Positions 8,756 through 56,745 of a stretch of 64,000 nucleotides of DNA are shown here, one piece after another. Below the pieces are notes generated by a model, which saw only the letters and a program-made list of their open reading frames with translations, did no database searches and had not been told where the DNA came from. Made by a program: the position numbers and the translations under genes. This DNA comes from Cenococcum geophilum. Taxonomy: Eukaryota. The stretch's first letter is position 1. Each line of letters begins with the position of its first letter. The DNA lies in the NCBI GenBank assembly GCA_050273025.1, contig CP158635.1:8122001-8186000 (forward strand). Reading direction: 5' to 3'.

Positions 8756-8920
8756 GCTGTCGTTCTGGTGTCTTCCTAGGTAGGGAGGATGTAAGGAAGG
8801 GTAAAAAATGAGGTGGCTACCTAGGTGTATATAGGGGGTATACTTGGCAGAGGCACGTGTAGAGGCTATCGGGAATATAGCGGGGACCCGATAGTAGTGT
8901 GTCGCGCGCACACACACAAA

Positions 8921-34278: not shown

Positions 34279-35406
34279 AAAGGAACACCAAAATCGAGAT
34301 CCGACCCATACTGTCCTATGGGGGTTCCTTTCCGTCTTATTCTTGTCCGCACGGTCAAGCTAAGAGTGAGGATCTCGTCTGTTACTGATGCAGCGGCGTT
34401 ACGTCGTGGCTAGAGGGGTCTCTGAATACTTAACCCTTGACGCCGTCAGAACAGCAGAGTTTTCACGGGTCTTGGCGCAAGACCCAGTCAACAAGACGAC
34501 TCCATAAAATCGGCCTTTGCACCCCCACGCGGTGGAGCCCGGGAACCTAGTATGCAACTATTGGCGTTCTATCTAGATCGTGCCAATAGACTACTAGAGC
34601 GAACGCAGAGACGTGCGTACGGCTGTGCGGCGCCGGCGCTGCGACGTAGTAGTAGTGCGAAAAGTCTTCTGCTGGGAGGGTGAGCCCCAGCGAAAGACCT
34701 ATAAGTACGACTACTATGTCTCCACGTATACGTCTGGTACACCTGAAGTACGGCAACTAAACCGGCGTCCCCCCCTACCTCCTATACGAATACCTACACG
34801 ACCAAACGAGCCGCATGCAGCGACCGACGAGCCGTAAGCAGCGACTGAACACCTTATACGCCCTAGGAGGTCTGTGATGAGCCTCTCATTCCCCACTCTA
34901 CCCGACAGCCTGGACTTACCTACGCGGTATTCTGTCTCCCTCTACGTCTCGAAGCCCAGCTAGGTTGCAGGAGGTAGGTTGTAGGGGACCTAGGTTGGGG
35001 CCCTAGGACAAGACACCTAGTATATTCGTCCCGCTGTTCCTTTGGGGTGGAAATCATGCTGCAAGCAGGAGGACTATAGGCGTATGCACGCTAGGGTATT
35101 TAAATAGGGGCGGAAGGGCAGGATTACAAATTTTTTACGGCAATTATATCTAATAGGAAGCATGGTACGAAAGGCAGACAGGGCAAGATAGGCAATCAGG
35201 ACACCCCCGTACGGGGGTCTCAGAGCAGCGACCTAAAAGGTATTTTTCCTCCCGTTGATGTAGTACGGGCGTGCTACCTAGAGGGGTACACCCTGTATTA
35301 CCACTCACGTTCGCCTTGGAGGTTTTTTGTATCTATATCACGGTAGTAGTCTGCATGGACTCGCAAGAGGACCGCATCAGACGTAAAACAAGAATCAAAT
35401 TAAAAG
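34279..35406 (+). mobile_element. Candidate SINE-like / retroposed structured non-coding element (1128 bp)
   Basis: Exact 14-bp direct repeat TAATATAGCTATGA at 34265-78 and 35407-20. GC-balanced interior rich in hairpins. A 3' stem-loop is followed by the A-rich tail AAAACAAGAATCAAATTAAAAG. No long ORF. Confidence 0.6.
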
Positions 35407-35749
35407 TAATATAGCTATGATATAGTTATTAGATATAAAGATAGAGATAATAAAGAGCTTCTACCTATAGTATTTTTAAGATAATTAGACATTAAAAAAG
35501 GGACGAGTGTATTTTATAGTGCTCGGCTACCACCAAAGCTGGGACAATAAGCTGTGGAAAATTTACTTGGATAAGGAGCAGTATGCCCGTCACAATAATC
35601 CACCGAAGGTCTGATTTATGAGACAACAATTTCCCCGCGTGAACAATAATGATGACAGACGAAGCCCAGTTGGGATGACGAGCTCAACGCCACTCTAGCT
35701 ATCCCGAATCCCTCTGCTTCTTTTGGACTCCCTGGTCATATAACATACA

Positions 35750-37493
35750 ATGGAGCTGCTAGATCTCTGCTACGACGTCTTGATCCGCATTCTTCAAGAA
35801 TTGGAGCCGCAAGAATTGGCCCGCTGTTCGAGCTGTTGCCGAAGCTTCAACACTTTCATAAGGGGTAATCGGCGGCTGTTTAGAGTACTTTATCTGCAGA
35901 GATTCGTATGTTAAATGCATCCAGTACTCTGATGTCTCTGATGCTTGGTAGGACGACCCACGCCGGCATGCAGCGGATGCGGAGCCGCACTGGGAGAAGG
36001 AGCTCCCAATTCTTGTAAAATGCCAAAAAATCCTCCAATCTGATGATTTTGATGCCAAGGTAAGCCAACTCATAGAGCATTTGTCTTCCCAGTGGCTTAC
36101 AGTCACGTTAGATACGGCATTTCGACTTCCTGACCAGCGCCGTGGAAAGTCTTCTCAAAACTTCATCGGACAGTTCCCGACCCTCTCTAAACATCTCCTT
36201 CCTCTCAGACCTATTCAAATTACAAAAGAATGTCGACGCGTTCCTCTGCCGATCCTCCCTCTTCTCTCGTGCAGGGACCGACCGGCAAACTCCAGCCAGC
36301 ACAGAAGAGCAACGGCAACTAAGCGCAAAGCTCCACTGCCATTACGGCAACCCTGTCGATCCTGTCGGTCGACGGTCCTTCTCCACACATCCATACGCAC
36401 GCTCATACGTCTACGACCTACGCAACTATACGGATAAGACAGAATGGGGCCCCTTCCGCATGGATGGGTCGCTGTTCGTTGATTGGGAAATGGTCGAAAC
36501 CATCATGATCGTGCTGGCGTATAATATGCGGATCTTTAGCGAGCGCACTGGCGGCCGCTTCAAGCCTGTATGGGAGATACCGTTTGATGGTGTCGCGAAT
36601 AACAGCTTCAGTGCAACATATCCGCTGGCTCTGCCGGAGGAACCAGACATACCACTGCAGGCAAGGGATCCGTTTAATATTTCTGGCACGTGGATGCGGG
36701 TGAGTGATGATATCTAGTGTTGTCAGTTTCAAACTCCTCTGCTAATTCAACCAGGTTGTCTGCTTCCTAGGTATCTGAGACTTTACCCTTTGAGGTCAAT
36801 TCGCATTTAACGCTCTGCAGACTACAACGACCTCTACGCCTTTAACTTCGCCAATTCACCGGTCGCCAGCGACGAACCCAGGATCCCACTCTACACGGAA
36901 GAAGCAATCCGGCTCATCATCATGAAGCTTAAAGTGACCAAAATCGAGGCCCCGGGCCGCTTCGACAACCCCTCCTTACCAATCGTGCATTTCAGCGGCT
37001 CCTCGCGTTCGCTCGACGCGTTATGGGACCCTAACGCCAACTCTCGTATCAAGGGTCCGTTCCCCCCTCCCCCATTCATCCACCCGACCAAGCTATGCTA
37101 ACTAATATTACACAGGCCGTGTCAGGCTGACGTCAGAAGGCGAAGTACGCTGGACTACCGTTTCAATATTCTACGGGTACGATGCTTCACCCCCCTTTAC
37201 CCCTCCTGCCAACAACGCGAACCAAACCTTTCTTTGAACAGCAATCAGCTGACTCCGCTTATAGTGGTGAAGAACGGTGGCGCAGCGAAGGCGTGCAAGT
37301 CGGCGGGATCCGCTCCAAGCGCGGCGTCGTTGGGACGTGGTTTGACAAGGACTATGACGTACATGGCCCGGTCGGCCCAACCGCGTTCTGGAAGCTGAGC
37401 GACCGGACTAAGAAGGTCGGCTCTGTAGACTCGGATTCAGGGTCAGAGCTCGAAGTTGAGGCGGAATCGGATTCAGAGTCAGATTCATCATGA
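35750..37493 (+). CDS. Fungal F-box domain protein, 7 exons (35750-35905, 35952-36059, 36112-36699, 36755-36770, 36821-37054, 37116-37176, 37265-37493)
   Basis: N-terminal F-box [37 protein letters not shown] introns give a continuous frame through [40 protein letters not shown] and [10 protein letters not shown], followed by an acidic tail. Confidence 0.9.
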
Positions 37494-37786
37494 TGTACAC
37501 ACGCGCACGAGCTATGACGAAATTTCCAGGCTAACTAGATAGGGGTGCAGGGGAGGATGCGATGCTGATATATAATATCTGCTATCAAAGTTTTCCATGA
37601 CGGCGTTCTTTAGGAAAAGGGGAGTTCAGGTGTTTCTATATCTATATCTAGCCACCCGCAACCACAAATATAGTCCCGCGACCCTTCTCCCAACCCGAGC
37701 CCCCCGGTCGCCTCGCCCCCCTTTGACCGCTTCGCGCCGGTTTTGACAACCACATCGCCCCCGCCCACCCCTAACCGCCCACCTCC

Positions 37787-39733
37787 TCACGCCGGAATCA
37801 ACCCAACCTGAGCCCCGTGAAAACTCTCAAACGTCAACCTCACCTCCTCCACAAACTCCCCCACTGGATCCCTACACTCCACCCCCTGAAACCCCCTCGC
37901 CAACCTCGCAAGCACATACTAAATCTCGCTCCTGGCAAGCTGCTGCGCCGGACAGTGGCGCGGCCCGCCGCTGAAGGGCACGAAGTCCCAGATGGGCCGC
38001 AGGGTGGCCCAGCGCTCGGGGCGGAAGCGGTCGGCGTAGGGGTGGAAGGTCGGTGCGGTGTAGCGCGTAGATGCTCATGCTAACAGTGTCGCCGGGGAGG
38101 AGGAGGAGCATGGTTATGCCGTAGGGTCCGCCGCCGGTGGGGACGGTGCGGCGGAGGCAGGTGCGGGAGTTGTTGGCGACGATGGGGTGGAGGCGGAGGC
38201 CTGGGGGCTTTCAGCCTGCATTTTGGAGGGTATTCCTGGCTTTGTTATCTGGTGGTGTTCAGGGCAAGGAGGTGGGGAGGAGGTGGGAGGAAGGAGGGAG
38301 GGGATGGAGGAGGTAGAGATGAAAGAGGTAGCGAAGCAGAGCACGAATCTTAAACAGCAAACTCACTCTCATTAACCGCCTATCTCAGATACGTCAGGCT
38401 CTTCAACTCTTCGAATATCACCGGCGCATCCCCGAGCCCCAGCACCTCCTCCCTCGGCCTCGCCCCACACCGCCGGATGCCGCGCCAGATCGAACACGAT
38501 GCTCGTCAGCGCAATCGCCGGGCCGTCATGCGCCGCAAGGAACACATTCAGCAGCTCCTGCCGCACCGCATCGCGGTCCCCCGTCCACTTCGCCAGCTCG
38601 TGGGCCAACACATACCGTTCGCCGCCGACATCGCCGCCGAGCAGCTTCCCGCCGCCGCCGCTTTCCAGCTCCTCCTCCTGGCCGGACTCCTTCTCCACGC
38701 TTCCCGGCTCGGCGCCGCCCTGCTACTGCTGCTGCTTGGCGGCGGCCTCCTGCCGCTGAGCCCCCTCGAAGGCCCGTCGACGCGCTGCTGCGTCCAGGCG
38801 TTGACGTAGCGGCACGCGTCGCGGAATCTGCTGTCGTGGTGGAGGAAGCGCAGGCAGCCGAGGAAGAAGCGCACGCCGACGCCCGATTTGGCGAAGTTGA
38901 AGCATTCGAAGAATTTGATGTTTTCCGGGGGGTCGGAGTGGGGTGAGTTGATGGATTCGCCGAAGATGAACTCGGAGGATGAGTCGAGGATCTGGAGGGT
39001 GGGGGGGGGGGGGGGGGGGGGGCTCTTAGCTGGGCTGGAGTTTGCTGGAATAATCGTGCTGCTGGGCTCCTGCTTTGGGAGGGTGGGATTGACTAGGGGA
39101 GAAGAAGAAGAAGAAGAAGAAGAAGAAGACGGGGAGGTGTTGCATCGAGTCTAAATAGCAGTAAGCAGACGCGCCAGCTTAGCAAACAAGGGCTTCAGAC
39201 CCACCGTCTCCCCATTCGTCGGAATCCGCTCATCATCCTGCCCGCATGGACTTCGAAGTTCTGCAACGACTCGAGATTCCTCCGTGCAAAGGTCGGCTGT
39301 ATGAGCCCGCGGCTCCGCTTCCAGCGCGACCCGTCCGAGCTAATGATGCCGTGGCCGAGCAGCGGCTCCGTTGACATGTACCGCGTGGCGCCGATGCCGA
39401 ACGAGTCCATGTTGGTCGCGAACACGGCTTGGATGTTGCACACCGCGATCGTCGACACGACTCGGCTGCTGAAGGGACGGGATTGGAATGTGTTGCCGTA
39501 GCGGGCGTGGTTGGCCTGGTTGAACCGCATACGGCGGTGCTTGCGGGTTGTGCGGAAGAATTGCAAGATGAGGTCGATGCCGAAGATGGGGTCTTTTTGC
39601 GGGAGAGAGGGCGGTGGGAGGCAACCATACTTGTGGAAAGCGAGGTAGTGGTAGAAGCGGGATTGGAGGACTAGAAATGTTTTGTAGAGGGAGGGCAACG
39701 AAGAAAAGGGAGATTGCGGTAGTGAGAGGGCAT
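37787..39733 (-). pseudogene. Cytochrome P450 (CYP52-like clan) pseudogene
   Basis: Motifs DPIFGID, LLGHGIISSDGSRWKRSR, I-helix LNVFLAAHDG, LRLHP, FRPERW and heme motif [10 protein letters not shown] lie in different frames. Several frameshifts, and in-frame TAGs near 38380 and 37920. Confidence 0.85.
39000..39128. repeat. Poly-G run and (GAA)n microsatellite inside a P450 intron
   Basis: A G run of ~22 nt from 39001 and a GAA repeat at ~39099-39128. Confidence 0.9.
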
Positions 39734-40384
39734 GGTGATTGGAGGTTGCAGATTGGAGGTGACAGATTGGAGGTGACAGATTGGAAGCGAGTAGAAAGAA
39801 GTGGAAGAAAGTGAGAGGCTCGAATTGGCAGGGCACGAATGAAGCTGAAAAACTACACATAAACCCCCTCCAAAGGTGGTTGTCACAAAGGTTGCGGCAC
39901 GGCATTAGTGAAGTTGCAAGGATGGGCAAGGTCGGTAATAGGACCTGGTCACTTCGCTTGCTCCACGGACTTTAACGATTTCATCCCTGTACGTACTGCA
40001 ACCGTGGAATATTAGACCGGTCCCTCTGGAGTATTAGGATTGTCGAACCACCTACCGTACGTGGCTAGCGGAAGATCTAGTATACTATAAATTTTATGAA
40101 CTCTTTTTTAATATAAAGCTCTTATACAGTTATAAATATGTAGATTTTATTAACCTTAATACGTCTACTAAGAGTAGAAAAAGAATATACTTAATATTAC
40201 ATGGGTAGGCCTAAGGTAGTTAGCCTTACTATAGGCACTAAAACTTTAGCTACACCTTATATAGCAAGTGTTTTAATGGTAGCGTATATCCACCAGTCCA
40301 CCATCCACCTTCTTGGCGGGAGTTGCGCGAGCCTTATATAGGAGCCAGGCAGGGGTTAAATAAGCGCCATCCCGACCCGGATAC

Positions 40385-43300
40385 GTGTATGTATATATAT
40401 ATATTCTATTATGGCCATGCACCATCTAGGGTATAGGCCGTTACAGAGCGCTAACTAAATACTTCCTGCTATTAATATGCTTGCTCTAGTTTAGAAGCCA
40501 ACTATAAGAACTATATATCTATTACCTAACACTATGCTTAACTAAGGAAAAAATAAAGGAAAGTAATATGTTACTATTAAAGAAAGTTAAAGTTTAGAGG
40601 CGAGCCTAAGTAAGTAGTTTTTAATGCCTTGTGTCTATAGGGCTATTCTAGCATTATACGCTTCTTAATTAGCAACGTACTAGTAGAGGCACGTGTAGAG
40701 GAGGCTCGCGGTGTATTCGGTTAGATAATTAAAGGAGGAATTCTTAAGAGTCTTTACTTATTAATATCAGCTTTTATACTCTCTATATCTTATATACTTA
40801 GGTATAAATATCCAGTCTCCTTTATAAATTTAATTATAGCTTTAACTACGCTAATGTCTGGCTTCTAGCGCTTAATTAGGCCGTTAATATTCCTACCTCC
40901 TTCTTATCTGCGTAAGTAGCCTCCTAATATATATAATAGATCCCTAAATTAATCTCTATATTACTCTCTTAGTTTAATCCTTTACTACGCCCACCTCCTA
41001 TAAGAGAAGAGGAAGTGCTATATTAACTTTATAAGCTTATAGTTACATAACGCCATCTCTAATGCATTAATTTTGTGGAGATATTCCTTTAGAAATAACT
41101 TACTGGTCCGTAGCTATATAAGGATAATAGCTTCTAAGCTAATTAGCTGCTAGTATAATCCTACAGCCTTTCTAAGGTAGAGTGCTGCGTTAATCTTCCT
41201 TATAAACTTACCTGTATTAGATCTTCCTAATAAAAGCAGTTCTGTTATTATTTTAGCTCTTTTTAAGGCTTGCGTCACAAGGTACTATAGGAGGCCGTCT
41301 TTCTATAGTGGCTCCTCGCTCTCTAGTCTTATTGCTGCTTTAATAAGCTTATTGGCCTTTTTATTTTTTATAAATCCTAAGTAGCCTAGAATCTAGTATA
41401 GCGTAATATTGTTTAGCTAAAGCTTTTTTAAAATCTTTGTGACTATTTCCTAGTAGGCTCTAGCCCTCTAGCTCTATACTAATAGTAACGCTAATTATAA
41501 GTTAGAGAATATTCTTATACTAGATATAGGTATTAGAAAACCTACTTAGTTAACAGCCGTGTATATAGGGTCCTATGGCCAGTTAGCTGCCTTGCTAATT
41601 GCTAAAAGCTCTATAAGGTAGGCGTCGGCCTAATTAGAGCTCACTACCGTTTTTAAAAGTGTTGCTTTAGATAGCGTAGCATATACACTAACTCCTGCCC
41701 TACTATTGCGCACCGATGTATTAATGTATATATTAACCTACCCTAGCTTATAGTCTTTAATAATAGCTTGAGTATAATCTTCGTCCTTATATATTACTAT
41801 ATTAGGCTTAGCTATTTACGGCGGGCATGTATATGGTTTAACCTTTAGCACCCTATTTACCTAGACATCCTTATATATCTTTACTGTCCTCTAAAGCGGC
41901 AATTGGTGCCGTCTATAGAGCCTCTGTCTTTAAATCATCTAATAAGGATATAATTTGCCTAGTTTATAGATTAATACCTAAAACGCAATAGCCTGGTTAC
42001 GCAGCCTTTACTTAAGAGGGAGTAAGCCGGCTTCTACTTTTGCTATTAGTAGGGCAATAAAGCGGAACCCCCTAATAATAGCTTATGCCGTAATCCTCTG
42101 CGCCTACTAAAGGAGCTATATTAACTCTTATATTATAAGTAGGTACTATATTAGTAACACGTAGTCTATTACTAGTAGGACTAAGCTCTTAGCTAGCTGC
42201 TTAACGCTCTTAAACTATAGTCCCTTTAATCTGCGTAACGCTAGCGCTACCTTAGTGGCTTTACCTACCTTATCTATTAGGTACGCCTTAAACCGTAGCT
42301 CCTTATTAAGAATTACCCTAAGGATTTTAACTTCCTAAGTTAGGGGGATCCCTTTTCCTTTAAATTGGAGCGGCGTGGTAGTATCCCTACCTACTTCTTT
42401 ATATCTAGTAAGGTAGATAAATAACGTTTTCTTCGCTTTAAATTGGGCTCTACTAGTCCTCTCCTATTTCTCAAGCATTGGTATAATCTTACCCTAGATA
42501 ATCTGCGTATTTTCCTCCGCCGTAGGGCCTATAACCTATACTGAGTAGTCGTTAATAAAGGCTATAGAGCTGCTATTTCTAGGTGCGCTTTATATAAGAT
42601 CCGCATTAAAGAATAGAAAGAGTATTAGGGCTAGTGCTAATCCCTATAGGAGACCCGCCTGCGGGAGCGCCTATACCTCTAATATATATCCGTTAACTAG
42701 GATATAGGCTTAATAGTTTATATAAAAGTCCTACACCTATTATATAATCGTCTAAGGTATCTATCGCTACTATAATCTCCTAATTTCCGGCTCTATAGCC
42801 ATATTATTATACGCACCCTTAATATTAAATAATACTAAAGATAGCGTCTTCTTTCCTCTTTATGCTCTAAATACGTCCTTATAGAGATATAATAGCGTAT
42901 ATATTATTAACCTTTACTTTCTAGCTCTAAAGTGCGTCTTAGGTAGTAGGCTATATTCCTCTACTAGGTATGCTATCCTCTCCGCCACTAGCGATTTAAG
43001 TGCTTTTCCTAGTATTGGGAGAAAAGAGATCGGCCTATAGTTATTTGCTACTATATAGTCCCCCCGCTTTAGCTTCTATAGCGGTATAATCTTTACTACC
43101 TTTTATTCCTAGGGTACCTTTCCTATCTTAAGTAATTTGGTAAAGAGAGTGGTAATTTTACCACTTAGTATGGGCCACAGCTCTTGCCACACCCTGGCTA
43201 GTAGGCCGTCCCTTTTAGGAGCCTTATTTAGGCTAGCCCTAAACACAGCTACCTTGACCTCATGTTTGGTGATAGGCTCCTACGGCAATTAGTTGTAGCT

Positions 43301-46107
43301 AGTTATAGCTTCCTCCTCTTATTTACACGGCGGTAGGACCGGAAAGAATACCTAGAGTAGTTCTCTTGCAATATTATAGTTCTCTGTAATAACTTCTCCC
43401 TATCCTCCATCCTTCTTAATTAGTAGTATTCTAGCGAACGCGGATATAGCCTACAGATTGAGGTATTTCGACGCTTTTTATATATTATTACTATTACTAA
43501 GGAATTCGTCCTAATAGAGCTTCCTATATCGCTGAATAGTCCTATAGAAGAGCTTCTTTACTCTTACTATAATATTACGTAGCTTAGGGTCATCCCTTCC
43601 TTGCCTCCGCATCGCGCTATTTCTGTTTCTTTAGTATATATATAACTTCCTTAGCGTTATAAGGTCTTCGTTCCACCATCTTTTTATATACAGTGATAGT
43701 CTAGCCCATTAGCAGTGTGCTTTAAGGGCTTTATTAACCTACCTATTAAGGTAGTTAACCATTTTGTCTATATCTTCTATAGGGAATCCTATCTCTTTCT
43801 ATTACTCTATATCTTCTTATATCTTATCCTAATTTGCATTTTTAATAAGTAGCCTCTCCTAGCTCTCCTGCGTATCTATATTAACCTAAAAGCTAGTATA
43901 GATAGCTCTATAGTCTAATCTGTACTTATACTTCTAAATAGCGCACTTTACTAGTTTACTCGCTAGGCCCAGGGTTGCAAGTATAAGGTTAATTATTAAT
44001 ATTCGCCCTATATTGCTTTTAAACGTAGGTATTCTTACTAAAAGTAGGCTTTAGAGTAACCGGTCCGCCATAAAGTTAATAATTGGCGCGCTTTCTTCCT
44101 GCGTTAATGTGGTACTAATATAACTTCCTCCCCATAGCGGATTATGCCAATTAAAGTCACCTGCAATTACTACCTTAGTGTGTAGGTCGCGTAATAGTTC
44201 ACCTTAGATTAGCCTATTAATTATCTCCAGTTTACTAGAGAGCTCCTCTAGGTTCTCTTCCTTAGTTCTCCTTAAATATCTATCTAGAATATATACTAAT
44301 ATAATTATAAGTCTCCTTTAGCTAACGTGCGCTACTACCGCCGTAATATCTGCTAAATCTACCTACAGCTATATAGCTGCCAGCTCTCTAGATACCCAGA
44401 TATATAACCTAACTAGGGAATACTACTACTGCCTGCCCATTAGGACGAACCTTATCCACTAGGGATTTAAGCCAGCTAGCACCACTTCCCCATCTAAGAG
44501 AAAGCAGTAAGGCTCCTGGCCTAAAATAAAGTAGAAGTCTGCTAGCGCTTTATTATTATATAGCGCATACTACGCCTCCCTATACTTCTTTATATTCGCC
44601 TAGAGGATCTAAAGTTCTCTATTTATAGCGCTATTATATAAGAATCCTATCTATCTCTTTTCTGTATACTAGGTATTTACGGTATAAGGCTTAGTAAGGA
44701 CCCTAGCAGTTTACATAGTATAGATTTACCATCTTATACTAGAGATAGCCTTCCCGCCTATATATTTTGCATATATTAGGTCGCGTACAGTCTCTAGCCC
44801 TATATTTAAACCTTTTGTATTTATAGTATATTATAGGGGTATATCGCTCCTTAAATGGTAATATAATAATCGCGCCTCCCCTAAATAATACGTTGTTTAA
44901 CGTAAGCAGCTTCTCTACATCCTCCTTTATTGCCACTTTAATAATCACTAACGCGTGCTAGCCGCGCGGCCTTAGTTATCCTAGCTATCTCATTATATAT
45001 ACCTTTACCCTATTCTCTACCCTAAAGCACTCTATAGCTAACTTACTTACTTTTCTACTATTAATATCTATCGCTAAAGGTACTTTAACCCAGTCCGCCT
45101 TAACCATATACCACTTAGGTCTAATAAGCCTCGCCCTAGGGATATGCGGTTTAAGCCATTAAGCAATTATCTACCTAAACACAGCTTCTTTATCTTTTTC
45201 CACTAAAAATCTAATAATGCTCGCGCTGTCGCTTATTCGCTATACGCGGAAGTCCTTAAGTATAGCTCCTATAAGCCCCTTAACATCCTTTATACCTTAC
45301 GCAATGGTTTACTTTACTACTTTAGTAGTAGCTACCCTCTCTATTACCTCTAAACCTGCTCGGCTAACGTCTATTACTAGCTGCTAATTGGGTTCCTTGG
45401 GGTTCCTAGCGCTTATTATTTGTGGTAAGGTTATCTCTAACCCTGCCGTGCCTTTACTAGCCGCTACCGATGCCTATAATTGTGTTAGAGCTAAGGGAGT
45501 GTTTAGTTACGCTTATAAGGACCAAATAGCCTTTTAGAGTTTAGCGTTTTACTTTTTAAGGCTTTGCTATTTCAATTTAATATCTACAAAGTTATTTCTA
45601 ATGCTCTTAATAATACTATTCTGGTTTATAATAATGTTGCTCTACTATACTATAGTTTCTTTAAGGCTTTCAATAAGTTGATAAAATTCATTATAATTAA
45701 TACCTCCTCCTTTACGTTCGGGTAAGGTAGAGACTCTTACTATAGGGAATAGAGGCAGTATATGCTATGTAGCTTGTAGTCCGGTTTATAGTGCGGTTGT
45801 CTACTGTTCAAACTATACTAATATTTAGGCTCGTGTCCTCAGCGACTACTAGGCCTCTTACACCTTCGCGCTCGGTTTCTTTATACGTCTTAGTAGAGCT
45901 GCTAGCGGGTCCAGAGGCAGTGTTGCTGATACGCGTTCAGGGGTCAAAGCAGCCATCGGGGCTCCGGGGCTTCGTTCGGTGGGCCGCAGGGGCCGCCTTG
46001 TAGCGGGAACTAGCTAAACAAAAGACTAGGATTTAATTAAAAGAATGTCCGAGATAAATATCCTCCTCTTTCAAAAGTTCTATCCGGGGTCAGTAATACA
46101 AGGGGGT
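40385..46107 (-). mobile_element. Near full-length RIPed Tad1-like LINE (ORF1 Zn-knuckle; ORF2 APE-RT-RNase H)
   Basis: Minus strand: CCHC knuckle remnants ~44650-44830, APE motif AGDFNxHxPLWGG ~44130-44170, RT GLPxG..L.LILF and AF(I/V)(N/D)DY ~42545-42660, RNase H ~41350-41740. Tail AATAGAATA(T/C)ATA..CATAC at ~40385-40410. Probable TSD CC(G/A)ACCCGGATA at 40372 and 46108. Ends approximate. Confidence 0.88.
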
Positions 46108-46454
46108 CCAACCCGGATACAAGGGTGTGGCCGGTACAGGTCGGCCGCCCTCCCTGCTAGGACGGTCGAGGTGTTAGAAACTCATAATACTTTGTCCAGG
46201 TGTATCTCGTTAGCTTCGTTAAAAGTCGTGGAGAAAAGTAGGGGGGCTGTGTTGTCGCATGTCGTACGAGTGAAGATGATCATGGCGAGCGAAAGACTGA
46301 GAAGATACTTTGAAAAATAAACTTTTTGTAATAAAAGGTTTTATTAATGGATGGAAGTCTGGCGAACGAGGAAGTGGCCATGTGTCAAGGTACAGCTCTC
46401 TCTCAGGCTCAAGGCCCGCCAAAGAAGACCCGACAAAAGCCACCCCGTCACTAG

Positions 46455-46565
46455 AGTCAGCTGAAGACCCGGTGCATTATCTAGCCGAGTATGAAATACT
46501 TGTTTGTAGGGAGCACGGTGGTGCGCTAAACTGGAGCAGCTATCTGGGAGACCACCATTTATGGC
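46455..46565 (+). pseudogene. Short gene fragment resembling DUF3505/OrsD-like Zn-binding N-terminus
   Basis: Translation EDPVHYLAEYEILVCREHGGAL..HH resembles the YLxEYxxLxCxxC/H..H..H pattern. No continuation. Confidence 0.4.
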
Positions 46566-46773
46566 AGTCAAGGACGCCCGCAAACGAAAGTCCCGAAACA
46601 AAGGTACGGCTAGCTTAAGCATAGGAAGCCGAATGGTGTGCAACTTATAGGAAGCGGCTTAAGCCGCGCATTGGCAACGAGTATGAGAGGTTCACATGGG
46701 ATGCGATATGAACGCATTCGTGACTGAAGCTTGCAAGCAACTGTTTATTGGATGGAACTTGGAGGCGCATATA

Positions 46774-46860
46774 TCCCTTCCAACGGTACAATTCGTCCTA
46801 TCAATTCTATTGGCTGGCTCTTATCGATAATGGTAGGACGAATTGTACCGTTGGAAGGGA
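46774..46860. mobile_element. 87-bp MITE
   Basis: TIR TCCCTTCCAACGGTACAATTCGTCCTA(T/C)CA with an inverted copy ending 46860, and TA TSD. Confidence 0.85.
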
Positions 46861-47039
46861 TACACTGCGGCAGTTCCATGTCTATTGAGCTCTCATCGAT
46901 CTTTCCGAATTAAGATCACCCTACGACCTACGCTACGTCATATATTGTCCCTCCCACTTGTCATTCCCATTATCTTATATGCTTTACTATCTTCTTAATC
47001 GCTCCACACCATCGCGCTAAGAAACCACTTAGGCATATC

Positions 47040-48793
47040 CTAATTCCAACCAAGGGAATTCTCAGCCGGAACAGGAGTTGAGATCTGCCGTCGTCGTATA
47101 GCATGTCCGTTGCTTCCTCCACTGCCACGGGTATCACGGCTTCCAGGAGAAGATTGTCCAGGACGACCGCTAGGCATCCAAGCAGCACCACCAGCCATTG
47201 ATTCATAGGTATAGTAACTGGCACTAGACACCAAGTTCGACCGTTGGTGCTTCTTGTTCCTATACCTGCGCGCAACGAGGAACATGGCAACACCGCATGC
47301 TATCGCACCTATGGTAGCTCCCGTAGCAATCCCTACACTAGTAAGCATAACTTTGCGGTTAATATTCATGTCCTTACATATCGTACCTCCAATGCCGTAT
47401 TTATTGGGTTCTGTGCTTAATAGAACAAATAGTTGGGTTGGCTCAACTTTGCCAGCAAGCGTTAATCCGTTGACAGTACGGATCTGGTTGCCATCGCTGT
47501 TAGCTAGGAGATACGAGACGTCACTTGAAAGTTCCCAGGTGAAAGAGGACAGAACTGGAATAGGAGTTACGCCAGTGGGAGTAGAAATTGGTGCTATTGG
47601 TTCAGATGTAGGGTTAGTCAGTCCTACGCCGCTGCTTAGAACGGCGCCGTTGAGAGACGGAATAACTTGAGTGGGCTGAAGCACGGAAGACGGCTGGGAG
47701 ACCAGAGAGGATACAAGTGACAGAATAGACATGCTCTCTAAGGTTGTAATAGGGGCTGGACCGGAAGCTATTGGTGAGTCTGTTAATCTAGATGCTGTCA
47801 TATATCTAACGACGGTTCCGGGAGTAGGTTGAAATATAGGTGGTAATTCCAACGAGACCTGAGCATGATTAGGCTCGCTCTCTGATGTTAGAATAAATGT
47901 CGCGATTGTTTCAAGGAGGCCGCTGGTTAAGCTTAAAGATGGTATAATGCCGGCGCCAGATGGGGCTAGAATAGTAGCGGCAAGACCTCCAGCAGATCCA
48001 ATAGAATTGGCGACAGAACTAGGAGCAACGGTGGGAAATTGAATACCTCCTGTAGAGCTTCCCCTAAGAGCCGAAGTTATCTGCAGAGCGATTTTACCTG
48101 TACCTTGGGAAGGAGATAAATCGATTATGCTTGTGAAGGGAGCAGGAGAGCTGGATGTCCCCAATACGTGGGTCTTGGGAAGAAAAATGGTGGAAAAAGT
48201 AGTGCGCCCTGGATTGAGGACGCCATTTTCGTGAGAAGACAGAGGCGAGAGACTTTTCGAGACTTGTGATGGCTTAACGTTGGTTTCTGCGATATCGCTT
48301 CCACGACTTGGTTGAATGGCAGCATTTATAGATAAACGAATAGCTGCGTTATCAAATTGGCCGATAGTAGGTTGGGTAAGCTTAACCGTCGTAACGGGTA
48401 TTCTGGATTTTTGATTTGAACAACGCGGAGGCTCTGGCAAGCCTGCCTCGAGGGCCTCAGTGCAACCTTTGCTGGATTCGTTCTCCTATGCAAGTCAACA
48501 TAGACTAATAGACATCCTAGTATCGCAATTATGTTGTCTACCTCACTGCAGTACGCTAGGAAGTCTTTCTCAGCCGTCCACTTCGCTAGTTTGGCCATGC
48601 AGCGCCCATCCGTCCAACTAGCGTATCCGAACCAGAGTGCTAGCGTGGGTAAGAATATAACACCTATTGCCTTAAGCCAGCGTAGTATAGTCTTTCTTAG
48701 GCGTAGCAGGATCCTTGAACGGGTCTTTTTGGGTCTCGATATCCTGCCTGCATGGCGGGGCTTACGTTTCGGTCGTGTGCTGGATCTAATCAT
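47040..48793 (-). CDS. Two-TM Ser/Thr/Pro-rich membrane protein with an Msb2-type signalling-mucin TM and cytoplasmic tail (exons 48793-48542, 48485-47040; ~565 aa)
   Basis: A GT-AG intron at 48541-48486 joins the two listed ORFs in frame. Basic N-terminus plus TM (IGVIFLPTLALWFGY) plus AKWTAEKDFLAYC motif, then a long S/T/P-rich region, TM VGIATGATIGAIACGVAMFLVARRY, and C-terminus RRQISTPVPAENSLGWN, matching the characteristic ISxPVxAENSLGWN end of filamentous-fungal Msb2. Confidence 0.8.
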
Positions 48794-48891
48794 ACCTTCT
48801 GATTAGGTGGGGGAGCGAAGAGATCTAGGCTGCCTGCGGTTACTTCTTTAAAGTTGGGTGGGTTTAGGGGCTTAGAGGACGCGAATTTATA

Positions 48892-50267
48892 CAAGGGGGC
48901 CTCATGAGCGGGCTGCTCGCCCTCCCTGCTAGCGCTGGCGTGGCTTTAGCCATATGTAGCGTATGAATAATCCACAGAAGCCACTAGAATACACCAGACT
49001 AGCTAGATAACATATAAAACAACGGCAGGGGGGCCTTATATCTTGTATTACAAAAATACTAAATCTTATACGCCGGCAGCGAGGCTACTATCCACTAAAA
49101 ATCTAATACCCAATTCTTTGAGATCTAGGCACCCGTCTTTCTTACCGTGAGCGTAATATTGCTTATTTCCTCTCTTAATACGCTAGTTGGAATCACTAAA
49201 GGATTAGTGCCTCCCTTAGTATACCTTACAGAACTATATTAAATTCTCTCTAGAATCCATAGACCCCTTAAAAGCAGAGGGGAAGGAAGCCGAATATTAA
49301 TACCCCAGCATAACAGCGTCTAATTGTATAAGCAAAGTAGGACCGTTGGCACCGACAGAAATCCTTTAAGGAGATTACATTTCTTAAGGGAATCTCTGCC
49401 TGTAAGCGATCTTTATATAAGGCCTTTAAAAAGGAGGGCTACTTCCGCCGCGTTGTAACAGAGAAGCCCCTTATTACGCCTAAATAACGAGAGGCCCGTC
49501 TTAAATAGGCCTATTCTTATCTAGAATGGACTCCTAAGATGTGGGCAGCAGTAATTTAAATAGATAAAGCGTCTATTTAAACCGGTGGAGGCCAGATTTT
49601 TATTACTAGAAGCGCCGAGGAGAAATATAATATTAATTGCTGTGTCCCTAAATTTAGGGGGTATTCAAGCTAGATAATCTACGGTAGTATTTCCCATAGG
49701 AATAAGGGACCTTTAGTTATTTTTAAAAAGGACTAGTTAATTAAGCTAGGATACAAGAAAAAGACGATAAATGGCAACGTCTACCGTACCTATATATACC
49801 CCAAAATTAAGACTTTTATATAGGAATTATGGCAGATACTATAATACCAGCCTATCCTTATAGAGGATAATGCCTTAATTTACTTAGTAAAAGTAACGCG
49901 CCTTGCTTAGGAACAGAACGGCATGCTAGTAATAGAATGGCCAGCAAATTCTCCTAATTTAAATCTAATTGAGAATATCTGGAGGCTGTTAAAGGGGAGG
50001 ATATAACGCCGGTTCCCTAGAATAAATGACAAAGTATAGCAGTACGCTGAGGAGGAATGGGAGAAGCTCAAACCTAAAGAATTCGAAAAGTATACAGGCA
50101 ATATAAGGGAGCGCTGCTTGGCTGTAATTGATGCAGATGGCGGCCCAACGAAATATTAGTAATTGGTTACTGAATAAGCACTGTTTTCATGTGGCGATGT
50201 GGCAATTGTAAGCACTAACGGAGGCGCTAGCAGGGAGGGCGAGCAGCCCGCTCATGAGGCCCCCTTG
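48892..50267 (+). mobile_element. Tc1-family (DD34E) transposon, RIP-inactivated
   Basis: Perfect 44-bp TIRs CAAGGGGGCCTCATGAGCGGGCTGCTCGCCCTCCCTGCTAGCGC and TA TSD. Transposase remnant ~49070-50159 with EDNA..WPANSP(N/D)LNxIENIW (34 residues between D and E) and GGPTKY*. Confidence 0.95.
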
Positions 50268-50536
50268 TAATCGTTCGGTTAGCGTTGTGGCTTAAGACGA
50301 AACAAGCCCTAATGCACTGCTCCCGACAAGGCATAGAGGAAAAAGAAAGAACTTAAAGGACATTTATGGTCGAACTCCACCATCCCATGCCTTAGAGAAG
50401 AGAGAGCTGTTATTCAAGGTCACAAAACATGGGCCTAGGATTTTAGAGGATCACCTGCAGGCAATTGCGGATTCCTTAAAATTTAGGAAATGATGGGTTA
50501 GAACTATATTTTAAACACCATCTTATTAAGTTTCTA

Positions 50537-50853
50537 TCCCATGCGCCGTTGAGGCGTACGCCAAAAGAGGCCCGTGCGGGAACACCAAAACTTTTCACAC
50601 GCTCCTCCAAGGACTCAATTCGGCTGTGCTCTATGCAATATACCCCTCTACAAAGAAGGACTTGCTGGCAGGAATACCTCAGCCTAATCAGGACACGATA
50701 GAGTCAGTTATATATCAAGTTTGAGCTTTATTATAATGATTTAGAGCCTTAATTTATTGATCAAATTCACGGCTCATTTCGCGAAGACACGATTCAATCT
50801 AGAGACTCTGATTGGTTCGCTTGTGCGTACGCCTTTCTCAACGGCGCATGGGA
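50537..50853. mobile_element. 317-bp MITE
   Basis: TIRs TCCCATGCGCCGTTGAG(AAAG)GCGTACGC and TA TSD (50535-36, 50854-55). Confidence 0.8.
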
Positions 50854-51035
50854 TAGCCAAATCCTTGCATTTAGGATTAGGTATTCTCTTAAACTGCACC
50901 TGCACTGAACTGCTAGTCTCTTCCCTTCGCCGTATTCTTTGAGCGCCGCTTAGATTGCGATAGCATAGTAACCGTTATATACCAAAGTTTCCTGTAATAT
51001 CTGATCTCCCGTTATAATATCTTTCTCTCCGATTT

Positions 51036-51272
51036 TGTTACGGCACTGGCAGAACTTGGCAGAACTTGGCAGAACTACGCACCGGCAAGTTGCCACAGAT
51101 TGCCGCATATTGCGGTCACGTGACGCGAAGATCTTATAAAACATCGAACGGCGCTGCTCTTCTTCTCCTTTCCTTTCCCTAGCTTTAGATTCTCGTTTAT
51201 AGACAATCCAATCGTACAGGCTTGCGCGTCCCTTTTGCCGTGCCCATGCCTCGATTGACTGAGTCGCTAACA
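51036..51272 (+). mobile_element. Solo LTR of the Gypsy-1 family (237 bp)
   Basis: Aligns with LTRs 1053-1279 and 6806-7032, with one extra 10-bp GGCAGAACTT unit. TSD GATTT (51031-35, 51273-77). Confidence 0.95.
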
Positions 51273-51798
51273 GATTTAAGGTTCTTGATAATCTTTACTT
51301 GCTCTTTCTTGTAAAACAGCTAAGCTGCATAAGCATGCTTACCGGTGATATCTAACGGTAATTAAACTAATTTAGCACTGGATGTCGCTACTGCAAGTAG
51401 GGAGGGCGGCCGACCCGCTCCGGCCACACCCTTGTAGGTGTTGTAGCAGGTGGTTCTCCGGAAAAACCGGTCTATTCCCGTGCGGTCGCTAGCGAAATCG
51501 GCTTCTTATGAAGGTTTCGCCCGAAATGGCTAGCGCTGCGGCCAAACCCTGGTAAGAAGGTCTGGGGTAGGGCATCCACGACAATCCACGCTGGAGCTTG
51601 GGCCACAAGCGGGCGTGTCTGTCCCTCGGGACGATCATAGAGCTGAGAAGCACCATAATAAAGGACGCGCTTTTGTTCTGTAAGTTACGAGCACCACGAT
51701 CGTACTCAACTAGCAAAGATGTCTGAAATGCAAAGCTAATATTCTACTAGTACTTCCATATTAGATGAACGTTCTTCTCGGACGTCTACCGCTGTCTC

Positions 51799-54700
51799 AT
51801 GAGCGACAGCCTTGCCGACGCCGCGATGGCGCATCCTCCTCGAACACACGAAGATTACCAAATCGGAGTCATATGCGCCTTGGCAACTGAGAAGGCCGCT
51901 ATGGTAGCGATGCTGGACGAAACTTACCCTAAATTAAAGAAGGAAAACGGCGATGAGAACGAATACACACTAGGTAGAATTGGGGTTCACAATGTCGTTA
52001 TTGCTTGCCTCCCAGCTGGCTTAATGGGAAATGGTCCTGCCGCTATTGTCGCAAACAATATGCGACGAAGCTTCCCAATCAAATTCGGCCTTATGGTCGG
52101 CGTTGGTGGTGGTGTTTGGAGCAAGAAAGATGATATTCGTCTTGGAGATGTCGTTGTCAGTCAACCCACAGGGGCTCATGGTGGGGTGGTGCAGTGGGAT
52201 TTTGGAAAGACGGGAAAAGGCGGGAAATTTCAGCGGACTGGCTCCCTGGATAAACCACCACCGGTGTTACTGCACGCGTTGCAGGAGTTGAGGACGTTTG
52301 ATCTTACAGACGGTGTTGATATTGTAGGGTCTCTTTCGTTCATGGTTCGGAACAAGCCGCGAATGGGCCGGACCTATCGATATCAAGGGGAAGATCATGA
52401 CCAGCTGTTCGAGGCCACCTATGACCACGAAGGTGACGAGACGTGCGATGAGTGCGACCCTAAGTTGATTGTGCAGAGACCGGCCCGCGAAGACTCTACT
52501 CCCAGGATACACTACGGGAACATCGCATCTGGGAACGAGGTGATGAAGCATGGTACTACTCGAGATAAAATAGCTAAGGAAGAAGGCGTAGTTTGTTTCG
52601 AGATGGAGGCAGCTGGACTGATAGACAATTTTCGGTGTCTTATGATCAGAGGAATTTGTGACTATGCGGATTCGCACAAGAACAAAATATGGCAACCTTA
52701 TGCTGCGGCCACAGCGGCAGCATTCGCTAGAGCGCTTCTTGGTTTTATCGATGAACAGGAAGTGATCAAGACGCCTCGTGAGTACATTCTTCTGCTAAAT
52801 ATCAATCTACATGTGGCATATCTTGTGTTTTCAAGATTGTATTCTCTAAAGAAAATAGTGTCATTGCCATCCTTTGTGAAGATGTGAGATATTCAGCACA
52901 TGTCATGCATTTTGTGACGTAACTTCTGTGTATTATAACTAATTCTAAGTTAGTACCTCTAAAACCACTCAGGGTGCTACCTTTTGGTCGCAACAAAGAT
53001 TTCGTTGGCCGCCAGTCTCAGTTAGATCGGCTGATCAATATTTTATATACTGAGGATACCCAGGAAGACTGTCAACGTGTAGCTCTAGTAGGCCTTGGTG
53101 GCGTTGGGAAGACCCAAATTGCCTTAGAGTGCGCCTTTAGGCTCCAAAAGATTCTTCCAGTGCTCTCCGTGTTTTGGGTCCGGGCTAGTGACACAACGAG
53201 TTTCGATAATGCGTTTCGCGAAATTGGGCAGCAACTCAAGATTCCCGGACTTGAGGACGATAAAGCAGACGTCAAAATATTAGTCAAGACTAAGTTGTCC
53301 CAAGAAAGCACAGGGAAATGGCTTATGATTATGGACAACGCGGATGACTTCGAAATATTCTATCACAATGACAACAAAGACAGCGGATCCGGTGCATTAT
53401 CTGAGTATCTTCCTTTCAGTCCTCTGGGCGCGATTCTCTACACGACTCGGGATCGTGAGGCTGCTACAAGATACGCTGGCTCAAATGTGATTGATATAGA
53501 CGAGATGGACGATGAAGAATCCAGGAAGCTCCTTGAACGAAGTCTTCAAAACAAACAACTCATCGAAGATAAGGACGGTACAATCAAACTACTGAAATTA
53601 CTTGTCAATCTTCCACTTGCAATAATGCAAGTGGCCGCATACTTAAACGCCAAGAGTAGCACCATCGCTGAGTATCTCAGAATCTATGAAGAGAGCAGTG
53701 ATAATGTTATCAAGTTGTTAGGCAAGGACTTCGAGGATATAAGGAGATATCCGGGTATGAAGAACCCAGTTGCTACGACCTGGCTTATTTCCTTCGAGCA
53801 AATCCGAATCCGAGATCCTTTAGCAGCGGACTATATGGCCTTTATTTCTTGTATCAAAGGGCAAGATATTCCCTTGGACCTGTTGCCTCTAGCTTCTAAA
53901 TTCGATAAGACAGAGGCACTTGGCACCTTAAAAGCCTTTGGGTTTATTAAAGAACGCCTCAGCGGGATATCATATGATATGCATCGATTGGTTCATACGG
54001 CAATGCAAAATTGGTTAAAGCTTAAGGACGATTTAAGAAATTGGAACCAGAAGGCTTTACAGCAAATAAACGACATTTTTCCATGGCCGAAGCATGAAAA
54101 CAGGGCTGTATGGATGAAATACCTTCCTCACACGGAGACTATTATTACTTCTATAGACCTTTTAGGTGGAGTAGAGCTACCGCCGATGTTGCTACTTAAA
54201 TTAGCAGAATGCTATCGTATTGCAGGCAACTATTCAAAAGCCGAGCTGCTAGGCCGGCAGACGCTGCAGCTTAAGGAGAAGGTGCTCGGGAAGGAGCACC
54301 CAGACACGCTCGGGATCATAATGGGCGTTGCATCATCGCTCTGCCAGCAAGGGAAGTTCGTAGAGGCCGAGGTCCTACACCAACAGACGCTGCAGCTTAA
54401 GGAGAAGGTGCTCGGGAAAGAGCACCCAGACACGCTTGCGAGCATGATGGGCCTTGCATCATCACTCTACCAGCAAGGGAAGCTCGTGGAGGCCGAGGGC
54501 ATATACCAACAGACGCTACAGCTTAAGGAGAGGGTGCTCGGGAAAGAGCACCCAGACACGCTTGCGAGCATGATGGGCCTTGCATCATCGCTCCGTTCGC
54601 AAGGGAGGCCCGCAGAGGCCGAGGCCCTACACCGGCAGACGCTGCAGCTTAAGGAGAAGGTGCTCGGGAAAGAGCACCCAGACACACTCGCGAGCATGAT

Positions 54701-55733
54701 GGGCCTTACAATATCGCTTAACCATCAAGGGAAGTTCGTAGAGGCCGAGGCCCTAGGCCGGCAGGCGCTGCAGCTTAAGGGGAAGGTGCTCGGGAAAGAG
54801 CACCCAGACACGCTCGGGAGCATAAATAACCTTGCATCATCTCTCTACCAGCAAGGGAAGTTCGTAGAGGCCGAGGCCCTACACCGGCAGGCGCTGCAGC
54901 TTAAGGAGAAGGTGCTCGGGAAAGAGCACCCAGACACGCTCGGGAGCATAAATAACCTTGCATCATCTCTCTACCAGCAAGGGAAGTTCGTAGAGGCTGA
55001 GGCCCTACACCGGCAGGCGCTGCAGCTCAGGGAGAAAGTACTCGGGGAAGAGCACCCAGACACCCTCGCGAGCATGATGAGCCTTGCATCACCACTCCAC
55101 CAGCAAGGGAAGTTCGTAGAGGCCGAGGCCCTAGACCGGCAGGCGCTGCAGCTTAAGGAGAAGGTGCTCGGGAAGGAGCACCCAGACACGCTCGCAAGCA
55201 TGATGGGCCTTGCATCATCGCTCCGTTCGCAAGGGAAGTTTATAGAGGCCGAGGCCCTAGACCGGCAGACGCTGCAGCTTAAGGAGAAGGTGCTCGGGGA
55301 AAAGCACCCAGACACGCTCACGAGCATAAATAACCTTGCATTATCTCTCTACCTGCAAGGGAAGTTTATAGAGGCCAAGGCCCTACACCGGCAGACGCTG
55401 CAGCTTAGGGAGAAAGTACTCGGGAAAGAGCACCTAGACACCCTCGCGAGTATAAATAACCTTGCATTATCGCTCCGTTTGCAAGGGAAGTTCGCAGAGG
55501 CCGAGGCCCTAGACCGACAGACGCTGCAGCTTAAGGAGAAGGTGCTCGGGAAAGAGCACCTAGACACGCTCGGGAGTATAAATAACCTTGCATCATCTCT
55601 CTACCAGCAAGGGAAGTTCGTAAAGGCCGAGGCCCTACACCGGCAGGCGCTGCAGCTTAGGGAGAAAGCACTTGGGAAAGAGCACCTAGATACCCTCGCG
55701 AGCGTAATAAGCCTTATATTACTACTCTACTAG
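51799..55733 (+). CDS. Fungal NLR (STAND) immune receptor: PNP_UDP_1 effector + NB-ARC + TPR repeats (exons 51799-52777, 52954-55733; ~1252 aa), C-terminus shortened by a RIP-type stop
   Basis: PNP_UDP motifs IGVICAL, GLMVGVGGG, DIRLGDVVVS, FEMEAAG and IRGICDYADSHKNKxWQxYAA. A phase-1 intron GTGAGT...TTAG restores frame. P-loop GLGGVGKT, Walker B WLMIMDNAD, MHRLVH, and 12 highly similar 42-aa TPRs (LGKEHPDTL). Confidence 0.92.
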
Positions 55734-56230
55734 TAATAGAAGTTTATAGAGGCTAAGGCCCTAAACCGGCAGGCGCTATAGCTTAGAGAGAAAGTACTTA
55801 GGAAAGAGTACCTAGATACCCTCGCGAGTATAAATAACCTTATATTATCTCTTTATTAGTAAGGGAAGTTTATAAAATCCGAGTCTCTATACTGGTAGAC
55901 TTTATAGCTTAAAAAGAAGGTGCTTAGGAAAGAGTACCTAGATACGCTTAGGAGTATAAATAACTTTATATTATCTCTCTATTAGTAAGGGAAGTTTATA
56001 GAAGCTAAATCTCTACTAGCAGACTCTGCAGCTTAGGGAGAAGGTACTTAGAAAAGAGTACTTAAATACGCTTATAAGTATAAATAACCTTATAATATCT
56101 CTTTATTAGTAAAGGAAGTTTATAAAGGCTAAGGTTCTATACTAGTAGATACTATAGCTTAAGAAGAAGGACCTAATAGAGCTTAAATAACCTTACACCA
56201 TTGCTTTACTAGTAAGGGAAGTTTATAGGG
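54236..56230 (+). repeat. 126-bp tandem TPR-coding array: 12 units in frame plus 3-4 RIP-destroyed units after the stop
   Basis: The unit recurs every 126 bp. Units beyond 55733 keep the pattern but with CAG>TAG, CAA>TAA and ATG>ATA changes. Confidence 0.93.
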
Positions 56231-56745
56231 GCCTTAAGAGTATTAGCGGTTTTATATTTAGGGAGACTTTTTATTAAACGCAAAATAGGGTTATAAAAGA
56301 AGGACTTATATATAGATTAAACTATAAAGAAAAGAGACTATTTATATATAAAATGGTGGCGAAGGTTAACGTTAACAATAACAACTGTTGCGTCATTGCC
56401 ACCTTAATTAACACTTTTATATATAATATATTATTTTCTTTATAAATCTATTTTATAGAGGGCTAAGGGGAATATACCTTTATAGAGTTTAAAACTGCTA
56501 CCTAATTTCTAGTATTATTATAATAATTGTGCACTATTTACGTAATAAGTAGCGAGATATTTACCTTAGGAGTTACTCGGTTACAATATGGAGGTTTTAG
56601 ATTTAGTTTATAATCTATTAATTTGGAGTAATTTTGTCTATATAGTTACCGCTTATAAAACGCTAGAATATTAGCAACTTTATTATATATAGCTTCTAAA
56701 ATAGAGCTTTTGGCGTTATTTTAATATAGAGCTTAAAACTCTATA

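Follow-up and report, generated by a model that had tools for sequence, protein, structure and literature searches.

A stretch of 64,000 nucleotides from Cenococcum geophilum (NCBI GenBank assembly GCA_050273025.1, contig CP158635.1, positions 8,122,001 to 8,186,000 of the forward strand), referred to throughout as the window, contains at window positions 46120-51434 a 5.3-kb segment bounded by two 39-nt terminal inverted repeats (TIRs) of the Tc1 type, which we call the outer element. Judged by alignment with an uninterrupted homologous sequence, this TIR-bounded unit occupies one TA as a single insertion into sequence that used to be continuous. Subsequent insertions into it were those of a miniature inverted-repeat transposable element (MITE), a Tc1 transposon, a second MITE and a long terminal repeat (LTR) element that is now a solo LTR, and a long interspersed nuclear element (LINE) lies at its left edge. 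Protein comparisons support a gene-derived cargo from two families, namely a probable member of a family pre-labelled PF27810 and a fragment related to OrsD. We think it rather likely that the whole represents a single Tc1-family element, non-autonomous and of the Pack or transduplicating type.

The plant literature describes well how small cut-and-paste transposons carry whole genes. Fungal descriptions are few, attention there having gone to Starships, which are giant, and to ToxhAT and other hAT-type carriers. The locus described here is a compact case with clean boundaries, whose cargo is present in strains from two other studies, and it may bear on whether Tc1 shells feed the turnover of accessory genes in the repeat-rich compartments that house fungal NOD-like receptor (NLR) genes.

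The TIR pair and its relation to a nested Tc1

The original prediction, made from the sequence alone, placed a TA-flanked 39-bp inverted repeat pair (35/39 identical) around 5.3 kb, and both methods applied to it gave the same result. A repeat search returned inverted arms of 41 nt including the TA (46118-46158 and 51396-51436, 90% complementary), and blastn aligned 46120-46158 with 51434-51396 at 35 of 39 positions (89.7% over 39 nt), with a TA immediately outside both tips. The pair is real, far beyond chance: the 64 kb contain exactly two occurrences of the 17-mer from the outer TIR tip, together with one site at three mismatches (51538-51554), and three matches were reached in 0 of 100 shuffles. 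A scan of the window that tolerated transitions of the kind left by repeat-induced point mutation (RIP) found no additional outer-TIR copies, with 0 hits in each of five block shuffles.

The outer TIR is 71% identical over 51 nt to the TIR of a DD34E Tc1 nested inside the unit (Table 1), and the colinearity that had been noticed between the two holds in detail, the CAAGGG tip, GAGCGGG and CGCCCTCCCT standing at equal offsets in both. The core CGCCCTCCCTGCT is confined to four termini, those of the outer pair and of the nested Tc1 pair. On this sequence resemblance, the outer TIRs and those of the nested Tc1 are assigned to one TIR family.

The nested Tc1 lies 97 bp upstream of the cargo ATG. 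Translated in one frame with its stops read as X, it matches DDE_3 (2.8e-8) and HTH_Tnp_Tc3_2 (1.6e-4, below the model cut-off), and 34 residues were counted in this translation between the second D (EDNA) and the E (IENIW). The copy holds many RIP-type stops, and the database transposases nearest to it are a 299-aa protein at 75% identity and one of 361 aa at 48%. We compared the window with four sequencing runs, of which X1 is probably the source sample, X5 and X6 come from two further studies, and X9 is the fourth. Within 49168-50084, many sites that are T or A in the nested Tc1 are C or G in most other genomic copies in X1, X5, X6 and X9, and less RIPed copies of this Tc1 are therefore present elsewhere in these genomes.

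Sequences resembling the outer tips also occur close to the unit. An 11-nt copy of the tip (10/11, TA included) at 46097-46107 sits 21 nt upstream of the left TIR and exactly at the 5' junction of the LINE; it could be template-switch filler, a footprint-like remnant or chance. On the other side, the degenerate TIR-like sequence at 51534-51554 may derive from an older relative, as one of its ends, and the outer element may have inserted into that relative. A further, weak resemblance to the TIR, at about 40426-40475 in the LINE tail, reached a score of 21, where 500 random LINE windows gave at most 20; being borderline, it was left unused.

The ancestral insertion site

A metagenome collection was scanned with a 23-nt word from the right flank, which retrieved one contig, L001. 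In reverse complement, this contig matches window 40044-40384 (74-87%) and carries on gaplessly into 51434-51474 (95%), and it reads CCAACTCGGGTA joined directly to GGTGTTGTAGCAGG with one TA at the junction. In the window, cccgacccggata ends at 40384 and is followed by the LINE, by tccaacccggata (46107-46119), by the left TIR, the 5.3 kb and the right TIR, and then by ta and ggtgttgtagcagg. The search for an empty site proposed with the original prediction has thus yielded an uninterrupted homologous site, in which a single TA joins both flanks within about 375 bp of homology.

Because L001 is contiguous across one TA, both outer TIR tips abut one ancestral TA, which by this alignment is split in the window by two insertions, the LINE and the TIR-bounded segment. 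The 5.7-kb LINE separates the outer element from its ancestral left flank, and the 12-13-nt duplication around it is what a LINE insertion leaves, so that its second copy, 46107-46119, is the sole ancestral left-flank sequence still touching the left TIR. In all four runs the LINE stands at hundreds of times the single-copy level.

The same junction bears on the proposal that each TIR terminates a different element, independent or rearranged, with resident host sequence lying between the two. For Tc1, a TA beside each tip carries no information, four TIR positions differ, and the site has had a complicated history, with a third degenerate TIR-like sequence 100 bp downstream and an 11-nt tip copy 21 nt upstream, all of which such a proposal would accommodate. 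Two insertions 5.3 kb apart would not be expected to leave flanks that are contiguous across one TA, as those of L001 are, nor is the cargo present beside these flanks in L001. The single-TA junction makes two separate truncated elements very unlikely and contradicts the suggestion that each TIR belongs to an element of its own; we regard independent ends as scarcely credible and as already largely refuted. A cargo syntenic with the same neighbours but lacking the TIRs, the other outcome envisaged at the outset, was not observed in the one related sequence examined.

L001 carries TACAAGGGG-type tips around the piece that it shares with the window. In its reverse complement (5601-6354), TACAAGGGG tips at 5601 and 5724 and a sequence CCCCCTTGTA ending at 6354 bracket the shared piece, the tip at 5601 being similar to the nested Tc1's TIR. 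The same broad TIR family is therefore present in the organism of L001.

The interior of the outer element

Between the outer TIRs lie about 3.3 kb of non-transposon DNA. The expectation that the unit has no transposase of its own is supported by sequence searches, since all 12 of 12 frames of 46120-47042 and 50270-51435 gave 0 Pfam families and a DNA comparison of the interior with the nested Tc1 found no similarity beyond the TIR cores, and hence no remnant of that transposon. The segment had also been described as largely un-RIPed, and without the Tc1 its indices (TpA/ApT 1.03, composite 1.12) bear this out. Single-copy DNA would be expected to lack RIP, as this segment does; the nested Tc1 and its neighbour, the LINE (TpA/ApT 1.73, composite 0.55 for the LINE), are RIPed.

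Near the left end, the truncated open reading frame (ORF) at 46310-46618 matches the proteins P0045 (1e-6) and P0048 (8.6e-5), both of which match Pfam OrsD PF12013, formerly DUF3505; the ORF itself found no direct match to a Pfam family. Through these two proteins the DUF3505-like fragment of the original prediction is substantiated, and the ORF is classed by homology as a gene fragment of the OrsD family.

The two MITEs and the solo LTR that had been reported inside the unit were all recovered (Table 1). Over the small MITE, the X1 bin 46716-47379 has a depth of 1492 against about 75 for single-copy sequence, and 17 loose contig ends fall at 46796 in X5. For the second MITE, the listed variants between 50579 and 50811 each occur in 5 to 27 X1 contigs. 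The solo LTR, with GATTT on both sides, has extremely high run depth and loose contig ends at 51036 and 51272, and its family is also present in the window as an LTR pair at 1055-1279 and 6808-7032. This pair consists of two 225-nt direct repeats (1055-7032) that are 94% identical and 5753 bp apart, and probably marks the two ends of a RIPed LTR retrotransposon belonging to the family of the solo LTR.

The cargo gene and its relatives

The principal cargo is a minus-strand gene whose frame is open from 48485 to 47043, for 481 codons. A candidate intron of 56 nt (48486-48541) would link this frame to an 84-codon exon with its ATG at 48793 and give a protein of 565 aa. Of the intact, spliced 565-aa gene first proposed, the 481-codon open frame stands, and the longer model is possible by way of this intron, one of 38 candidates and with a weak donor. 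With a full open reading frame of about 1.75 kb, the gene is accompanied by about 0.7 kb of upstream and 0.8 kb of downstream DNA carried along with it.

The predicted protein is rich in Ser and Thr and has a C-terminal transmembrane segment and tail. Its closest relatives, at 96% and 88% identity, are confined to Logan assemblies among 18 protein hits; the other 16 of the 18 are from Pleosporales (Melanomma, Amniculicola, Westerdykella, Bimuria and unnamed members) and cover just the last 21-26% of the query at 46-65% identity. Against one of these, P0007, the C-terminal 108 aa are 63% identical (E 4e-27). The cargo ORFs matched no family in Pfam, and 16 of the 18 hits bear the precomputed label PF27810.1; our local Pfam copy was silent for the cargo as well as for three homologues so labelled, and the PF27810 model is apparently absent from that copy. 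Atlas leads for the cargo (Tda7p, WSC and Mid2/MTL1-like) all scored below 0.9. To call it a signalling gene, as the original prediction did, was therefore too strong. From the alignments, the cargo is identified as a diverged paralogue of a Pleosporales membrane-protein gene family.

It might be argued that the cargo is no captured host gene, being instead a gene lineage borne by the element or one brought by an unrecognised carrier nested in the Tc1 shell. As such a lineage might show, near-identical sequences are the only homologues of exon 1 and of the Ser/Thr-rich body, and an extra ORF is described as travelling with its element in 46 copies in Pyrenophora tritici-repentis (PMC3538342). 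The C-terminal transmembrane segment and tail nevertheless have clear homologues (63%, E 4e-27) among the genes of several Pleosporales genera, and most of these homologues are recorded on one or two contigs each (one is on 21). A repeat search found no inner TIR or target-site duplication pair around the gene region, which is itself single-copy. We consider an element-borne origin highly unlikely and continue with the cargo as gene-derived.

Representation in the sequencing runs

Both ends of the unit are spanned by independent contigs of X1, the left junction over 46053-46799 with 0 differences and the right tip over 51400-54000; since X1 is probably the source sample, these contigs only rule out misassembly. 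In X1, the cargo region is on one contig at single-copy depth (74.9). Its counterparts in the other two studies differ at 9 letters in 1165 (X5) and at 23 in 1228, with 48 further gap letters (X6). One X5 contig, 46768-47305, spans the nested small MITE and the 3' region of the gene, and the X5 contigs with both cargo and MITE indicate that strains share the composite. In X9, the depth is 0 over 47380-48707, and this uncovered part is not evidence of absence and was not counted.

Divergence of the cargo is 0.8% in X5 and 1.9% in X6, and that of the flanks about 2.0-2.9%; a recent arrival of the cargo was considered from this comparison and rejected, the difference being too small and uneven. 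Short-sided X1 joints at 40475-46121, 40496-46134, 46079-50222 and 46076-48907 (sides of 27-39) are probable repeat artefacts and were not interpreted.

The right end behaves differently from the cargo. Among the matches listed, 18 and 24 X1 contigs, 42 together, leave the fit at 51433 and 51435, respectively, for unlike sequence, and 18 contigs in X5 and 18 in X6 do so at the right tip. A 1479-nt contig of X9 fits from 51434 rightwards, that is, it breaks exactly at the TIR tip; for the 574 letters left over, no fit on the stretch is listed. With so many contigs diverging there, the right end counts as a dispersed repeat whose copies differ in their flanks. Among the matches listed, the left end showed no such pattern. 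A more speculative extension, which we hold to be decidedly unlikely, is that the outer element is one visible member of a still-active, Tc1-derived gene-shuttle family in this fungus. The dozens of contigs sharing its right end would then be siblings with other cargos, moving whole genes within and between strains in RIP-rich, NLR-bearing compartments, where the un-RIPed single-copy state would let genes survive.

A model for the origin of the outer element

If the outer element is a transposon with captured DNA, as we favour, the host DNA would have entered either while an excised or broken Tc1-type element was being repaired or through neighbouring ends being mobilised together, and the second of these routes has been proposed for plant Pack-TYPE elements (PMC8903248). 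A DD34E transposase acting in trans may then have cut and pasted the unit together with its cargo, by way of the shared TIR motifs. The unit would now be immobile or rarely mobile, with TIRs that differ at 4 of 39 positions and a single copy, and is probably a single, old, immobile copy. The original prediction held that a non-autonomous Tc1 captured host sequence and moved it with a related transposase in trans. Of this, the single insertion, the missing transposase and the gene cargo are upheld; the capture, the movement with cargo and the mobilisation in trans are inferred.

Several observations weigh against this model:

(i) The ends of the unit are imperfect. The outer TIRs are mismatched at 4 of 39 positions, compared with perfect TIRs (46/46) in the nested Tc1. 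DNA comparison found no similarity of the subterminal regions between the two outer ends or to the nested Tc1. An autonomous element with the exact outer ends (CAAGGGTGTGGCCGG-type) was not seen, with no whole-genome search behind this statement.

(ii) No second copy of the whole composite was seen in the runs, among the matches listed, nor did X1 hold a second, parental copy of the cargo at an identity of at least 85%. With a single composite copy and no parental cargo copy, duplication or movement of the cargo is not demonstrated.

(iii) The cargo gene has flaws of its own. The intron at 48486-48541 is one of 38 in-frame candidates and has the weak donor GTAGAC; the exon-1 ORF has a single close match and no wider homologues; and the 88%-identical relative, P0004, has an internal deletion. 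Compared with P0007, the cargo protein retains a 30-aa trace of the family's conserved extracellular domain, and because most of that domain is missing, the gene may be decaying.

(iv) L001 is homologous to the window over just those 375 bp or so, and window ORFs of at least 50 aa from 33000-40400 and 51400-56600 found no match in it beyond the shared piece. It is on this showing an uninterrupted homologous sequence and not a proven orthologous locus, and an older Tc1-like MITE, again of this broad TIR family, may enclose the shared piece. The boundary inference is left unweakened by this limited homology.

The main rival is filling in situ, whereby a short, MITE-like Tc1 derivative landed at the site and about 3.3 kb of gene DNA was copied in there later, by double-strand-break repair or ectopic conversion, so that the cargo never moved. 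The single-copy state of composite and cargo in X1, the lack of a second outer-TIR copy in the window and the 4 differences in 39 TIR positions would all fit such a history, as would the right end, which alone is a dispersed repeat, as expected if the common members of the family are short. Yet no short version was seen at the site, and the X5 contigs that carry cargo together with nested MITE make the composite common to strains. Moreover, non-transposon DNA normally enters by the same repair that makes Pack elements, which turns filling in situ into a variant of the capture model. We regard it as unlikely, while recognising that the present data cannot separate it from transposition with the cargo.

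Features of the region and neighbouring genes

Table 1. Features of the outer element, its insertion site and the adjoining NLR-type gene (window coordinates).
Feature	Position	Strand	Evidence and remarks
Ancestral left flank	40044..40384	.	Homologous to L001 reverse-complement 5664-6000, 74-87%
RIPed non-LTR retrotransposon (LINE), near full-length, (TA)n tail at 40385	40385..46106	-	Exo_endo_phos_2, RVT_1, RIP indices
Second copy of the LINE's 12-13-bp target duplication	46107..46119	.	First copy 40372-40384, 11/13 identical
TA adjoining left TIR, half of target-site duplication	46118..46119	.	Uninterrupted site in L001 has a single TA
Left TIR of outer element, 39 nt	46120..46158	+	Repeat search, tip 17-mer, blastn, RIP-tolerant scan
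ORF with OrsD/DUF3505-like fragment, about 50 aa of homology, truncated	46310..46618	+	Protein matches
Small MITE, 32-nt inverted arms at 97%, TA-flanked, multi-copy	46772..46862	.	Repeat search, X1 depth
Cargo gene	47040..48793	-	481-codon frame 47043-48485; candidate intron 48486-48541; candidate exon 1 48542-48793
Nested RIP-damaged DD34E Tc1, including its TA	48890..50269	+	TIRs, domain matches
Second MITE-like repeat, 20-nt perfect TIRs, multi-copy	50534..50856	.	Repeat search, X1 variants
Solo LTR (TG..CA), 5-bp duplication GATTT at 51031-51035 / 51273-51277	51036..51272	+	Repeat search
Right TIR of outer element, 39 nt	51396..51434	-	Methods as for left TIR; X1 contigs leaving at 51433/51435
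TA adjoining right TIR	51435..51436	.	Window sequence, L001 alignment
Ancestral right flank	51437..51474	.	Match 51434-51474 to L001 reverse-complement 5998-6038, 95%
Degenerate third TIR-like sequence, 18/21 to right TIR, then TA	51534..51554	-	100 bp downstream of element
NLR-type gene, PNP_UDP_1 N-terminus and 12 TPR_10 repeats	51799..55733	+	Context, outside element

The ATG of the NLR-type gene, at 51799, lies 364 bp from the right TIR tip, the distance given in the original prediction, and its product combines PNP_UDP_1 with 12 TPR_10 repeats. Within 54098-56233, the 126-bp TPR_10 units are 79-87% identical up to about 55800, and the ORF ends at 55733. The last units are AT-rich with transition-type changes, and RIP seems, from this composition, to be eroding the distal NLR repeats.

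Elsewhere in the window, dense tandem arrays with units of 8, 9, 12 and 20 nt occupy 7767-9900, and the 12-nt repeat block is covered by two minus-strand ORFs, of 416 and 354 aa, that overlap each other. To the left of the LINE, a GC-rich island contains a 236-aa minus-strand ORF (39195-39905) whose cytochrome P450 match falls below threshold, at 21.8 bits where the cut-off is 22.8; this ORF is probably an exon or a fragment.

Comparison with known gene-carrying elements

The original prediction described gene capture by fungal Tc1/mariner elements as much less documented than capture by plant elements, a statement that needs qualifying in view of a published case. In the account of Manning et al. 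(2013), Tc1/Mariner transduplication in Pyrenophora tritici-repentis involves a sequestered ORF in 46 copies, the family having 46 members, of which 31 are nearly identical and hold both coding regions (PMC3538342). Like the homologues of the present cargo, that fungus belongs to the Pleosporales (PMC3538342). Compared by description, the outer element differs from the family reported there (PMC3538342) in being a transposase-less single copy with a whole gene, its flanks, a second gene fragment and four nested insertions.

Pack-TYPE elements, including the Pack-Mariner elements of rice, are treated by Gisby and Catoni (2022) (PMC8903248). As characterised there, these elements resemble the outer element in being non-autonomous, in having TIRs of a known superfamily and a TA duplication, in low copy number and, as the homologies of the outer element's cargo suggest, in an interior of chromosomal gene DNA that sometimes derives from more than one locus; they differ in being plant elements with Stowaway-type TIRs and captured pieces of a few hundred bp (PMC8903248). 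The present element is fungal, with DD34E Tc1-type TIRs and a full open reading frame of about 1.75 kb together with its flanks.

Elements of the hAT superfamily make an 8-bp target duplication, and Starships, from tens up to hundreds of kb long, owe their movement to a captain, a DUF3435 tyrosine recombinase at one end. Among the element's ORFs and frames scanned, no Pfam match to a DUF3435-type family was found, and at 5.3 kb, with Tc1-type TIRs and no captain domain, the outer element is therefore not a Starship, the name given to a group of cargo-carrying mobile elements of fungi (PMC9156397). ToxhAT, described as a 14-kb hAT-type element carrying ToxA in Pleosporales (PMC6737239), is similar in placing a host-relevant gene inside a DNA-transposon shell in that order. 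Compared by description only, it differs in its superfamily, its larger size and its horizontal transfer (PMC6737239).

Gene capture by Tc1/Mariner elements is already published for Pyrenophora and for rice, and the locus described here extends a known phenomenon and opens no new one. What sets it apart from these cases is the combination of a missing transposase, a whole gene carried with its flanks, and an insertion site that can be reconstructed at the level of single bases.

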